Notes under the pieces: generated by a model | The model's database searches: none | Seen by the model: the letters and a program-made list of their open reading frames with translations, nothing else | What the model was told of the DNA's origin: nothing | Source of the DNA: Parasynechococcus marenigrum WH 8102 | GTDB taxonomy: Bacteria > Cyanobacteriota > Cyanobacteriia > PCC-6307 > Cyanobiaceae | NCBI RefSeq assembly: GCF_000195975.1 | Contig: NC_005070.1 | Location: 2,190,001-2,222,000 of the forward strand | Length of the DNA: 32,000 bases | Reading direction: 5' to 3' | Program-made: the position numbers and the translations under genes | Part shown: in pieces, positions 7,435 to 17,704 of the stretch | Layout of the letters: the number at the start of each line of letters is the position of its first letter | How positions within the stretch are numbered: the stretch's first letter is position 1

Positions 7435-10400
7435 TCAGGCGAGGGTCTCAAGATCTAATCCGGAAAGCAGGCTCGAGTAGTTCTGATCATCCAGTGGATC
7501 TATTAGACGATTGGAACGACCTGGATCAAATGAGAGGGCACCAATCTGCCGATCGGTAAGGGCATCAACGAAGTCACCCGCCTTCTTAATCTGCTTTTTG
7601 GTCAGGCCAGCCAATTGGTCGTCACTGAGTGCCTTGACCTGACGGCGGCTGAAATCATTCAGCGTCGCTGGCTTGAAACCAGAGATGGCGTCGGCATCGA
7701 GGGACTTAATCTTGGCGGGCTTGAAGGCGGAAATTTCGGCACCGCTCAGTGTCCGCAACTGTCCGCTGGTCAAACCCGTGACCGCATCCTTGCTGAGTTT
7801 TGCAAGTTGGGCAGTATCCAGTGCCTGGAAGGATCTTTTAGGCATCTGCTCCACTTGCTCGGAACCCAACACCTTGATCGTCTTCGGAGTCAGCTCAGAC
7901 ACCTGGGCCTTCGAGAACCCTGCCACTGCCTCTGGAGCCAACTTCTTGAACTGCTTAGGAGTGAAGGCACTCACTGCTTCTTCAGAAAGTTTTGAGACCT
8001 GCTTTGCGGTTAAACCCTCCACTGCAGAAGCAGGCAAAACTCTCATTTGCTCGGATGAAAGCCCTTTCAACGACGTCGGTGTCAACTCAGACACTTGAGA
8101 CTTCGAGAAACCAGCGACTGCTTCTGGTGCCAGCTTTTGGACCTGCTGAGCAGTGAAACCTGCCACTGTTTCTTCAGAGAGTTCCGAAACCTGCTCTGCG
8201 GTGAAGCCCTGAACTGCGGAAGGAGACAGATCATTTACCTGCTCTGCAGTCAGCTCGCTGACAGCATCTGGGGTGAGGCTAGAAATGTCATCTGAGCCCA
8301 AGTCAGAGACATCAACCGGCAGCTCATCTGAGGCTGTAGGTGTGGGATCAGGCGTTGCTGATGGCGACGGAGTCGGCGTTGCTGATGGCGATGGAGTGGG
8401 CGTAGCTGATGGCGATGGAGTCGGCGTAGCTGATGGCGATGGAGTCGGCGTAGCTGATGGCGACGGAGTCGGCGTTGCTGATGGCGACGGAGTCGGCGTT
8501 GCTGATGGCGATGGAGTCGGCGTTGCTGATGGCGATGGAGTCGGCGTTGCTGATGGCGTCGGTGTTGGCGTCGGTGTTGGCGTCGGTGTTGGTGTTGCTG
8601 ATGGCGATGGAGTCGGCGTTGCTGATGGCGATGGAGTCGGCGTTGCTGATGGAGATGGAGTCGGCGTTGCTGATGGTGTCGGTGTCGGTGTTGGTGTTGG
8701 TGTTGGTGTTGGCGTCGGTGTTGGTGTTGCTGATGGCGTCGGTGTTGGTGTTACTGATGGCGTCGGAGTCGGCGTTGTTGAATCCGAAGTCGTACCAGAT
8801 GACCTGGCCGCTACAAAACCCGGAGTTCTAATAGTACCCTGATCATCACTCTCGTCATTCTTACCGTTGTCCCTCACAAACAGGGTCAATGTACGGTCGG
8901 TTTCATCCCACTGAGCACCCTCGCCGGTTTCAGCGTCATACTGAAGATTGGTGAATTCACCAGTGACAGAATTCTTAGCTATGTATGTCGGATCTGCACC
9001 AACATCCTCGGGAAGCACCCATGAAACTGACTGAATCTTGCCAAACTTGGCTTGATTAGTCACAGTAATTTGAGTATCCAAAAGACCGGTTACAGCCTCG
9101 TAAGAAGTATCGGTTGTCTTCGCACGTCGAGATTGAACTTGTGCAGTCAAACCAGCGTCATAAACTGCTTTCGCCATCAATGGGGCGTCAACCGATTGCA
9201 CCTGTTTGACCGTAAGGTCAACGTTGCTTTTGGCACCTGAGCCTGTTGGGACAAAAATAGACAGCGGATTCGATCCATCAGCAGCCTTTACTGAGAGGAT
9301 GTCGGATGCAGATGAGTTTTGGAATTTATCGACAACCTCCTGACTAACATCGGTCCCCACTGCATCAGCGAAGGCATCGGATGCTGAAGAGGTGGAGCCT
9401 TGGGAAACAACACCATCACCAGTAATGTCCTGAGACCAGGTCGTCTCATTGAGTTCGGCTTCTGTGCGATACAACGCCGAACTCGGCTTGAAAATACCAG
9501 CGGTGGTGACGTCATACACAACGTAAACAACGCTCGACGTCTCAACTCCATCAACAGTGAGTCCTGTCGTTTCCTTCACAACCAATTTGTATAGATCACC
9601 CGACTTCTGAACCGCTATCGCCTTGGTGGAGCGAGACAGGACGTCAGAAAGTGTTTCTTGCACATCGAGATCGACGGGTAATCCATCGGCATAAGTCACC
9701 GCAAAGGCTGAGTTCTCACCATCTTTAATGAAGAGAGAGCCGTCAGATGTTTGACGCAATTTAGCTCCCGCCGTATCAGTCGCGATAGCAGTCGTGGAAT
9801 TAGCGTTGACTTCAAATACTGATCCGTCATCATTCAGATCAAGCCGGAACTGATCCTCAAGGGTTTCATGGCTAAAGAAATAGGTTTCAGTAGCCCAGTC
9901 AACCTTCATCGATACCTGATCAATATTCAAGGTCATATACTCCTTAACCGGATCACTCGAGCCTTCAGTAATCGTCTGCTCAAACAGCAGCTTGTAATAG
10001 GACAAAGCTGATTCTCCAGAACCAATTGTGACATCCTTAACAGCGAGCGGTGCCTGACTAAACGCGAAGTTCCCGTAGCTAAAGGACTCCGTAGCTAGGA
10101 AGGCATCACCAGACTCTGTCAACACTGCGGACTTGGTGGTCGAGCCCGACGGCTGTACATAGAGATAATTTTCCGGATCTAAGTATGGCTTGGAGCCAAT
10201 AGTATCGGTATCGACAGCTGTGTATTGAACGTTCGCCTCGCTCCAGATTGCATTATCACCATCCATATCCTCGTTCAGATCACCTTCATGGCGCTTGATT
10301 TTCCCCCAGGTGGCAGAACCCCAATCCAACTTACCTTCAGAAGAGACGATGAAGGTTTCCCAGTATGTGGAAGTCGTATCTGTTCTTTGATCCGTCTCCT

Positions 10401-16700: not shown

Positions 16701-17704
16701 CTGGCATCCCAAATACTGCGGTAACCATTTAATTCATATTCATTTAGGGCATAGACAGTGTCGCCGGCGTTGCTTTGATGGTTCGGGCCGTAAAGATACT
16801 GGACAGCAGCAATATCAATTGGTCCAAGATTTTCAAGGTAGCCGTCAATGGATTGATAGCCAGGAGAAACATCATCGAGTTGCCCACTGGCATCGCTTAC
16901 CGCGAGGTACGACGATGAATCGTTGTAGGTCATTACCGTCCACGGCGTGGAATTATTGTCAAACTCTCCGGCGGACGAGTCAGCTCCTTCACTCACACCT
17001 GGAAACAATGCACTCTCGTAGCTATTCCAGCCAGCTTCTCCACCGTTGTGGGGATGGGCTAGACCAAGAGCATGCCCCAGCTCATGGATATAAGTCAGAT
17101 AAAAATAAGATCCGGACTCAACCTCTCCACCATCGGCATCATAATCCTCGTTGAAAATGATTACGCCACTAGCGGCTGTTGCCTCAGAATCACCAGGGAA
17201 ATCGGCAATACCATGATAAATGCTTTCATCAGCTGATACTCCCCAAGCGATTGTTGTATTTCCCGAGAGGCTGCTGGATGCTTCAAAGCTCAATTGAGCG
17301 ACGTCTGAAAAAGCCTTCATCGAGGCTTCAATGGCTTCCTGCTCTCCAGGCTTCGGGGTTACAGCATTAAATGTATCTCCAGCAGCGGAAATTGAATCAC
17401 CCGTCTGGCCTATGTAATATGTAAGTTTAGTGGGCTCGAAACCATTCTGGCCGAGATAATCATCAGGATCCGCGTCTCCCCATTTAGTATTTAACAACAG
17501 CCCATTAATCAATGGACTGTTCAAGTCATACAAAGGGTCAAAGAGTATGTTGTAGGGATCATAGGAGTCGTGTGTATCATACAAGTTGTGGATATCATAG
17601 AAAGCCGAAAATTGATCCGTTCTTGCACTGAACGACCTTTGCAAAATCTCATCAGCATTGCCCTCTGCCTGGAACTGGAGGCTACCGAACGCGTTGCTGG
17701 ACAT
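7435..17704 (-). CDS. Single giant (~3,420-3,440 aa) secreted serralysin/RTX multidomain surface protein, interrupted as sequenced by a 1-nt frameshift at 13778-13785
   Basis: The two track ORFs (13763..17755 and 7435..13479) join when one base of the C8 run is removed (see findings). The likely start is the ATG at 17704 (MSSNAFGS...); the track's GTG at 17755 lies only a few nt from a -10-like TAATAT. No Sec signal or lipobox is visible. The protein is acidic and rich in D/E/S/T/G, with a single Cys. Confidence 0.8.
7513..8280 (-). repeat. 31 uninterrupted 8-residue repeats (16-residue super-unit) near the C-terminus
   Basis: [64 protein letters not shown] ... [17 protein letters not shown] hydrophobic residue sits at positions 1 and 6 of every octad, alternating FTxxQVxx and LxxxAVxG types. 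An internal duplication of about 64 aa is present ([27 protein letters not shown]... versus [27 protein letters not shown]...). Confidence 0.9.
8335..8790 (-). repeat. Pro/Thr/Ser low-complexity linker built from 24-bp units (ATPTPSPS)n and (PT)n runs
   Basis: On the plus strand gctgatggcga(t/c)ggagtcggcgt(t/a) is repeated about 8 times, then (PT)n, then 3 more copies, then (PT)n. The protein reads [34 protein letters not shown](ATPTPSPS)3...(ATPTPSPS)~9ATPDPTPTA. Confidence 0.95.
9400..14690 (-). repeat. About 12 divergent tandem protein modules (~150 aa each) with DxDxDG-type loops
   Basis: A signature recurs in each module: TDTTG..L....G.LYI.D...I.D..G...(W/Y)G....A.AVE.....Y.LAVK....W(E/Q)(V/I)...(S/D).G.(I/L)(D/S)W....W...I...E..F.(Q/E)DL(D/N)(G/D/N)(D/N)G..G(I/L/V)(D/N). 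The loop instances are [154 protein letters not shown] and [14 protein letters not shown]. Confidence 0.7.
13081..13236 (-). repeat. Nucleotide-perfect 27-bp tandem repeat x5 plus partial and degenerate copies, encoding RTX nonapeptides GGEGYDTIS (RTX block 2)
   Basis: The unit agaaatcgtgtcataaccttctccgcc occurs identically at 13081-13107, 13108-13134, 13135-13161, 13162-13188 and 13189-13215. A partial copy spans 13216-13236 and degenerate copies span ~13045-13080. The protein reads DTISGGEGY x5, then [18 protein letters not shown]. Confidence 0.95.
13763..17704 (-). CDS. Giant protein, upstream segment (frame A): serralysin-like protease, RTX, unknown domains, cupredoxin-like segment and the first two modules
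   Basis: Contains [11 protein letters not shown] (HExxHxxGxxH), the Met-turn-like [30 protein letters not shown]...VIDLR, and [35 protein letters not shown]. The last 4 codons (KCCF*) are out-of-frame readthrough after the G8 run. Confidence 0.8.
14738..15103 (-). other. Cupredoxin-like segment with a candidate type-1 copper ligand set (H...C-x2-H-x2-M)
   Basis: [40 protein letters not shown]...(55 residues His to Cys)...[19 protein letters not shown]. The Cys codon lies at 14777-14779 and the Met codon at 14759-14761. Motif-level call only. Confidence 0.35.
16331..16444 (-). repeat. RTX (GGxGxDxUx) calcium-binding nonapeptide block 1, directly after the protease domain
   Basis: [38 protein letters not shown]. 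Confidence 0.8.
17054..17086 (-). other. Metzincin zinc-binding motif [11 protein letters not shown]
   Basis: The reverse complement of 17054-17086 reads CAT GAG CTG GGG CAT GCT CTT GGT CTA GCC CAT. Confidence 0.85.

Follow-up and report, generated by a model that had tools for sequence, protein, structure and literature searches.

Giant open reading frames (ORFs) of atypical composition are established features of Synechococcus genomic islands, SwmB being the sole one characterised (PMC2441476), and exoproteomes have been found to contain giant proteins, an M10-type 'haemolysin' and a protein of 1,961 aa that combines peptidase with cadherin domains (PMC4949707). Estuarine strains of clade CB5, of about 63% GC, carry several RTX or cadherin proteins of more than 3,000 aa (PMC9387257). 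Giant surface proteins and exoproteins encoded in islands are believed to influence the encounters of picocyanobacteria with phages, grazers and particles. Here we analyse a gene of this kind, 10.3 kb long and on the minus strand (7435..17704), in a 32,000-nucleotide stretch of DNA listed under Parasynechococcus marenigrum WH 8102 (NC_005070.1, positions 2,190,001 to 2,222,000; hereafter the window). It is a real variant of the picocyanobacterial giant exoproteins and not a categorically new system. Like WH7805 EAR17767.1 (1,961 aa), the four >3,000-aa proteins of NB0720_010 and SwmB, its product is very large, acidic, repeat-rich and encoded in an island of atypical GC, and it has haemolysin/RTX calcium-binding motifs; some of those proteins likewise have peptidase domains, and some have been found in exoproteomes (PMC4949707, PMC9387257, PMC2441476). 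Judged against their descriptions, it is set apart by the order of its parts: a serralysin, a jelly-roll domain (here called R4), a cupredoxin-like segment, twelve tandem modules and a run of ALTTAQ repeats. The searchable literature yielded no paper that treats this fused architecture, and none on ALTTAQ repeats. The specific interest of the gene lies in its mosaic origin, in the unannotated family to which its modules belong and in a homopolymer frameshift.

The reading we favour, with some reservation and going by sequence, is that the gene encodes a protease-headed, calcium-binding mosaic exoprotein with predicted type I export, and that the window holds a recent loss-of-function or OFF allele of it. 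Two ORFs are listed on the minus strand, 13763..17755 (1,330 aa from a GTG, 1,313 aa from an ATG) and 7435..13479 (2,014 aa from a TTG). Frame analysis places them within an open frame at 17773-13766 and a second open frame at 13794-7438 (2,119 codons), which overlap by 29 nucleotides (nt) around GAATGGGGGGGGAAGTG. Taking one G from a run of eight (G8) in the overlap gives a single continuous frame from the ATG at 17704, the start also used by the relatives P0001 and L083 (see below), to the stop at 7435-7437, and the join restores the repeat sequence of the module. The repaired product, put at 3,439 aa in an initial annotation of this DNA, has that length when counted from the upstream GTG at 17755; counted from the ATG it has 3,422 codons. 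Residues are numbered here from the GTG, the ATG methionine being residue 18, and all features of the gene lie on the minus strand. GC content is 43-50% over the gene vs 62-66% in the flanking genes, and the gene sits in a low-GC island directly downstream of menE.

By alignment and gene order, the locus is a member of a conserved, syntenic Synechococcus family of giant exoproteins downstream of menE. Searching GTDB species genomes with the protease alignment brought up 80 loci, most with ORFs of 470-1,300 aa and three with giants, in Synechococcus sp. AG-676-F02 (3,158 aa, L003), Prochlorococcus sp. MIT0707 (3,102 aa, L006) and Dongia mobilis (2,376 aa, L056). The ORF of AG-676-F02, a single-amplified genome, is intact, and we refer to it as the ortholog. 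It aligns with residues 83-2988 in one colinear block with an overall identity of 50.7%; by region, the protease reaches 40%, R4 65%, the modules 41-58% and the C-terminal domain 60%. Two more members came from a metagenome scan with the R4 alignment: L083, 90% identical and in frame over residues 2-1516, and L086, a variant of 2,857 aa whose M10 unit is a different one (30% identity) and whose parts are shuffled, running protease, modules, R4, modules, PS/PT linker and ALTTAQ octads. An AMP-binding menE gene lies immediately upstream in the ortholog, in both metagenome members and in the window. The MIT0707 and Dongia giants are not orthologs. They resemble the window protein in opening directly with an M10 and RTX unit, behind which thousands of residues follow, and differ in what these residues contain: cadherin, SBBP propeller repeats, a C-type lectin and a dockerin in MIT0707, and about 30 further RTX blocks in Dongia. 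A phage-integrase-family gene (L006, 5775-6950) lies about 3 kb from the MIT0707 giant, consistent with its acquisition as an island-borne gene. The initial annotation had regarded the architecture as unrecognised; with a colinear intact ortholog, menE-adjacent variants in metagenomes and further giants headed by an M10-RTX unit, it is not unique. Directly 3' of the giant ortholog we noted a second M10/Peptidase_M10_C/RTX gene, cut by the contig end (L003, 12416-13975).

The complete serralysin-type unit that had been proposed for the N-terminus is borne out, with every motif listed for it in place. A pro-region-like segment (residues 18-95; 17471..17704), which has neither a hydrophobic signal sequence nor the RCGCxxC motif of relatives, is followed by an M10 zinc-metalloprotease catalytic domain (16751..17470) with the zinc motif HEXXHXXGXXH (residues 224-234; 17054-17086), the Met-turn WTVMTY (residues 272-277; 16925-16942) and a further listed motif at residues 314-325. 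Behind it lies a serralysin C-terminal domain with an RTX beta-roll (16256..16750) that contains four GGxGxD nonapeptides (residues 439-474; 16334-16441). Model searches give M10/serralysin and RTX matches well above chance, with mixed results against the curated cut-offs: Pfam Peptidase_M10 scores 29.2 bits (cut-off 24) and HemolysinCabind reaches E 1.3e-11; NCBIfam Zn_serralysin ('serralysin family metalloprotease') reaches E 8e-27, yet at 94.5 bits it stays below its own cut-off of 500, and Pfam Peptidase_M10_C has no match in the window protein, though it is precomputed for many homologs. Solved serralysins (1g9k, 1kap, 1sat and protease C) align at E 1e-18 to 1e-13 from the catalytic domain through the RTX roll, over about 390 residues (138-527, or 121-510 when numbered from the ATG). 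Across a 15-sequence alignment the zinc-site H, E, H and H, the Met-turn tyrosine and the GGGG/IENA/GN motifs of the C-terminal domain are all invariant, and the window protein has the DIAAxQxLYG helix of serralysins.

Stand-alone homologs from genomes (468-528 aa) terminate in ..DFIL, ..DFYL or ..DFVVVA, and a 506-aa one aligns up to window residue 557, four residues short of its own C-terminus; the point that matches the end of the stand-alone proteins is residue ~561 of ~3,439. Because the 506-aa homolog aligns to near its end, the N-terminal ~560 residues appear to be a complete serralysin, including a degenerate internal counterpart (16058..16255) of the C-terminal D-F-x-L secretion end. 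Segment 471-600 on its own has no match among the PDB sequences. One candidate for a stand-alone serralysin, the 486-aa TARA protein P0005, was rejected as a fragment of a giant like the ortholog, and the comparison used genuine genome-derived homologs instead. With the serralysins (MEROPS M10B: Serratia serralysin, P. aeruginosa AprA, Erwinia PrtC) the unit shares the zinc site, the Met-turn tyrosine, the DIAAxQxLYG helix, a GGxGxD beta-roll directly behind the catalytic domain and the lack of a Sec signal. It differs in that its match to relatives is about 30-40% identical, in that the unit is not C-terminal, its own secretion end being internal with ~2,850 residues more behind it, and in that neither an operon for an ABC transporter, membrane-fusion protein (MFP) and outer-membrane protein nor inhibitor genes were found next to the window gene. 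Most of the close protease relatives (P0002-P0004, P0006, P0008-P0010, P0014 and P0042; alignment A2) carry an N-terminal R-C-x-C-x-x-C motif, for example RCGCFLCQ, which is reminiscent of the matrixin cysteine switch PRCGxPD and is missing from the window protein, P0001 and the ortholog. P0001 itself (NCBI protein DCR17_13005, from a metagenome-assembled genome) is a 949-aa N-terminal fragment, 97% identical, filed under 'Verrucomicrobiales bacterium' on a 3-kb contig; since every other copy has a cyanobacterial context, this contig is probably mis-binned.

R4 (residues 611-871; 15143..15925) is the best conserved region, at 65% identity to the ortholog, and has no Pfam match. Homologs, AlphaFold2 and Foldseek point to a CBM/MAM-like jelly-roll beta-sandwich: the predicted model has a predicted local distance difference test (pLDDT) of 80-95 and resembles the jelly-roll folds of CBM4, CBM29, CBM35, MAM and the FlaA1 sheath protein at E 3e-5 to 3e-3. 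Many of its 36 homolog clusters are stand-alone picocyanobacterial proteins of 445-670 aa. Stand-alone R4 proteins (P0142-P0152 and the gene at L087, 4898-6889) have His-rich N-termini and an ECCPEG motif, and the L087 gene sits between a znuC-like ABC ATPase gene and znuA, hinting at a metal-related role for the domain.

The cupredoxin-like segment that had been proposed is plausibly formed by residues 887-1005 (14741..15097), which carry a putative copper site. The candidate type-1 ligands are SHPFF...CTSHSNM (14759-14779), and CTSHSNM holds the sole cysteine of the 3,439 residues, around which the putative site would be built. Of 9 aligned homologs, 8 retain the C-x2-H-x2-M loop and one, P0127, does not; several of these homologs represent N-terminal domains of stand-alone R4 proteins; the ortholog is without the entire ligand set. 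When the profile of this segment was run against 177,635 PDB sequences, amicyanin ranked second and third with weak E values of 0.43 and 0.68 (hhalign 46%). The AlphaFold2 model has a pLDDT below 55 in this region, is unreliable there and gave no match to a cupredoxin fold.

Next come the modules with DxDxDG loops, foreseen as about twelve and numbering exactly twelve (residues 1003-2786; 9397..14749). These are tandem beta-rich units of ~140 aa that finish in a helix and a DxDxDG-type loop, 134-152 aa long except for module 4, which an insert extends to 222 aa; each closes with F.xDLNxDG..G. No Pfam or NCBIfam model matched them. A single module is modelled by AlphaFold2 with pLDDT 90 and a predicted template-modelling score of 0.79, as eight strands, a helix and a loop, and Foldseek against the PDB gave nothing better than E 0.1, with a partial likeness to beta-propellers (TM ~0.2-0.37). 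Run against 1.84 billion representatives, a profile built from a single-module alignment (A6) matched 771 clusters, with E<=1e-30 for 101. Among these are proteins of 1,500-3,080 aa that have 11-15 modules and neither a Pfam domain nor a protease; one cluster is annotated as coming from Synechococcus CBW1107 and another from a Burkholderiaceae bacterium. Taken together, the module family is widespread and unannotated, ~140 aa in size, with a confidently predicted structure and, in the PDB comparison, no solved relative. When module alignment A1 was run against the contigs of GTDB species genomes, 21 pattern hits came up and none was confirmed. A direct protein query with the module returned 5 short proteins and not even the product of the window itself, from a collection seemingly without proteins above ~1,000 aa, so that homolog lengths cannot be used to argue that giants are rare.

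The second RTX block anticipated by the initial annotation turns out to be the insert in the loop of module 4, 6.8 tandem 27-nt copies encoding GGEGYDTIS (13045..13227); copy number varies, with about 14 in P0124, a 98%-identical Global Ocean Sampling fragment. Behind the modules lie a C-terminal domain of ~200 aa to which no family is assigned (8791..9396; 60% identical to the ortholog), a PT/PS linker (8335..8790) encoded by a 24/48-nt tandem array at 8351-8777, and octad repeats of the form L-[ST]-x-x-[QA]-[VI]-x-x (7534..8301). The octads match Pfam ALTTAQ_rpt (PF20080) in 4 stretches with 89.7 bits against a cut-off of 26.4 (E 9e-26); 29 are in perfect register from residue 3160, and about 31, the number first given, are reached when the edges are counted. 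The protein closes with the expected short tail, ...LDLETLA (7438..7533), a candidate secretion signal. Two 100-N gaps of scaffold L001 (14533-14632 and 19196-19295) coincide with the two tandem arrays, and the contig of another assembly ends there. As the arrays are the exact sites of assembly gaps, the copy numbers of both in the window may be uncertain.

Several of these units have stand-alone counterparts with endings of their own, the serralysin homologs as described above and the stand-alone R4/cupredoxin proteins with ..DDFTIV. By these comparisons, the gene is a mosaic whose units occur elsewhere as separate proteins, with C-termini in the style of type I secretion. The cassettes at the C-terminus differ between family members: the ortholog has a DDTGSG linker and one SWM_repeat where the window protein has the PT/PS linker and ALTTAQ octads. 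Both nevertheless terminate in ETLA (...PIPETLA in the ortholog), despite their different cassettes, and L086 terminates in ...VVDPLA. The family thereby illustrates an apparent route of assembly, in which complete secreted proteins are joined to the front of an extender-module array, with what is apparently one C-terminal end for the whole.

Type I export of the repaired protein is plausible and unproven. By eye, no hydrophobic stretch indicative of a Sec or lipoprotein signal is present at the N-terminus, in keeping with what had been noted before, and the composition is strongly acidic (16.5% D+E vs 5.4% basic residues) with 1 Cys in 3,439 residues and two RTX blocks. It is from these features, from building blocks with type I-style C-termini and from the conserved short tail that we predict this route. 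The ETLA end resembles the tails of other module giants; eleven that are signal-less have tails such as ..EVPTLGA, ..EVATVGA and ..NVAVLGA. The full-length protein would leave the cell C-terminus first, via an ABC/MFP/TolC system encoded elsewhere in the genome, and with this direction of export the protease would emerge last. Extracellular Ca2+ would then fold and stiffen the RTX roll and the module array, giving a long extracellular or surface-associated fibre with a predicted active protease and binding domains; the protease may stay tethered, cleave itself for release or process other proteins. Such a fibre would resemble the RTX adhesins LapA, MpIBP, SiiE and FrhA, which also run to thousands of residues of tandem calcium-stabilised extender modules with ligand-binding inserts, without a Sec signal, with almost no cysteine and with a presumed C-terminal export signal. 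Unlike theirs, the N-terminus here is a protease and not a retention module, the modules are not BIg-like and match no solved fold (Foldseek, E <0.1), the RTX blocks lie away from the C-terminus, which is formed by the ALTTAQ octads, and no lapG/lapD-like or transporter genes lie nearby.

The interruption of the frame lies in module 3, at G8 (13778..13785; C8 on the plus strand), which has one G too many. The 0-frame stops at a TGA (13763-13765), giving a truncated product of 1,313 aa that ends ...GGKCCF without a secretion-type tail, and the first possible start of the second frame is a TTG 105 codons past the frame opening; given the missing tail and the lack of a near start, the full-length protein would not be made unless the tract slips. 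The continuation of the frame for ~2,900 residues past the protease, which the initial annotation described, therefore holds in the intact relatives and not in the window, and that annotation underplayed the broken state of the gene. All relatives that cross the site are continuous (...SDEWGGSVVF...), from L083 at 90% identity through P0121 (71%), P0122 (68%) and the ortholog (50%) to P0123 (49%). The DNA at the site in both L083 and L003 is TGGGGTGG, so the window allele combines a synonymous T>G (GGT>GGG) with one extra G. The 10.3 kb hold no further disruption, and downstream of the shift the gene is 43-60% identical to the ortholog vs 40-41% upstream; this undiminished conservation suggests that the shift is recent, reversible or bypassed. 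Public assemblies contain the exact 1,313-aa product in 94 blocks. The longest contig with it, a scaffold of 965 kb, matches the window at 100% identity across 14.5 kb, G8 included. With reasonable confidence we take the frameshift for a real mutation, and the gene in this population is most likely a recent loss-of-function or OFF allele of a surface-protein gene. Such an allele would fit phage or grazer pressure on island-encoded surface proteins, and its occurrence in many assemblies offers a handle on the loss or switching of a surface giant in the field.

Several observations weigh against this combined reading of an exported mosaic protein and a loss-of-function or OFF allele. Neither the window, as reported before, nor the scanned flanks of relatives showed an ABC transporter, membrane-fusion or TolC gene; in those flanks L087 has znuA and znuC, and L006 has the integrase. 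The tail motif rests on three family members and a loose likeness to other tails, and the RTX repeats are N-terminal and central and do not adjoin the C-terminus as in classical type I substrates. As to the allele, the assemblies that carry it may stem from few projects; their independence is uncertain because sample names suggest that part of them come from one project; ERZ23491849 and ERZ922651, to guess from their record names, may both stem from PRJNA320136. In rsmH a second +1 frameshift lies at an 8-base G/C run, which makes a systematic artefact conceivable. In that gene, encoding a MraW methyltransferase, the run is C8 on the minus strand (4126-4133) and divides the frame into ORFs at 4058-4705 and 3814-4245; removing one C restores it, scaffold L001 is in the same state, and the 215-aa truncated product occurs in 53 blocks.

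Were the frameshift a sequencing or assembly artefact, the true tract would be G7 and the protein intact at 3,422 aa. Both 8-base G/C runs of the window (2/2) coincide with +1 frameshifts, one of them in the widely conserved rsmH, and both 7-base runs (3997-4003 and 21817-21823) are in frame; an artefact would also be at ease with a downstream frame that is open for 2,119 codons with its conservation undiminished, and with assemblies that may share read sets. We nonetheless think such an error unlikely, since the exact truncated products of both genes recur in their 94 and 53 blocks, the contigs ranging in size between 2 kb and almost 1 Mb, since an independent scaffold has the identical sequence at both the giant-gene and rsmH sites, and since contig names such as 'k127' suggest short-read k-mer assemblies, in which consensus homopolymer errors are rare. 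A reversible change could take the form of phase variation, slipped-strand mispairing toggling the tract between G8 (OFF) and G7 (ON), or of low-level transcriptional or +1 ribosomal slippage on GGG-GGG that yields some full-length protein. Poly-G tracts of eight or more phase-switch surface-protein genes in Neisseria, Haemophilus and Campylobacter; the tract here is lineage-specific, having arisen by the synonymous GGT>GGG change where relatives have G4-T-G2, a +1 slip on the run recreates the exact orthologous ...EWGGSVVF..., and the codons beyond it are intact and conserved. Against a switch, eight is at the low end for hypermutable tracts, the like frameshift in rsmH is hard to read as adaptive, and no G7 or G9 allele was seen, though the exact-match look-up is blind to these; a pattern scan of Joint Genome Institute metagenomes allowing G6-G10 found no copy of the locus and so is silent on tract length. 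We know of no description of phase variation in marine picocyanobacteria, and regard either form of reversibility as improbable here. The boldest version, in which G8 is a true contingency switch of a protease-headed, calcium-stiffened fibre, the first phase-variable surface-protein gene in a marine picocyanobacterium, with modules that form a structurally new domain family (771 clusters without a Pfam or NCBIfam model or a PDB fold match), is a long shot.

Gene fission, which would leave a functional 1,313-aa protease protein and a separate module protein of ~2,000 aa, can draw on the two products that gene callers annotate and on the protease-free, module-only giants found elsewhere. The break falls inside module 3, however, and not at a domain boundary; together with the distant TTG start of the second ORF, the N-terminal product that ends in ...GGKCCF without a secretion-type tail and the continuity of every relative across the site, this makes fission very unlikely. 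The initial annotation also raised a link to the SwmA/SwmB-type apparatus of non-flagellar swimming. The ortholog has one SWM_repeat (PF13753, E 2e-15) just before the shared ETLA end, but none is detected in the window protein at E<0.1, and the giant gene is frameshifted here. We know of no protease domain in SwmB. SwmB is likewise a giant surface protein encoded in an island (PMC2441476, PMC7522525), yet swmA and swmB are reported to be specific to clade III (PMC7522525), vs a lineage here that is estuarine with ~64% GC. That the gene belongs to the swimming apparatus is accordingly a notion to which we give hardly any credence.

The genes around the island are ordinary cyanobacterial core genes: rsmH, ndhH, a DUF2752 gene and a 4HBT thioesterase gene on one side, and menE, menC, menA, menF, gshB, a glutaredoxin gene, prfB, ybeY and dgkA, on to argS and nadC, on the other. 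A promoter-like site, TTGAAG-17-AATAAT (17769..17797), lies ~65 nt upstream of the ATG of the giant gene and is a weak consensus match only. Just 3' of the gene, a 140-aa ORF with a TTG start (6822-7244, minus strand) has no Pfam or NCBIfam match; gene callers on metagenome contigs give just 44- and 51-aa ORFs at this place, and the ORF is possibly non-coding. Beyond rsmH, a second low-GC stretch (39% GC; window 1-3700) carries a sulfotransferase-like ORF (2274-3083) and unassigned ORFs, and a longer contig (L090) extends it with a family-2 glycosyltransferase and an RCC1-repeat protein, so that it looks like a cell-surface modification island. The prfB gene (window 23687, plus strand) has the classical programmed +1 frameshift site, CTT TGA C, at which ...GHAQDCL* shifts, a known trait of release factor 2 genes.

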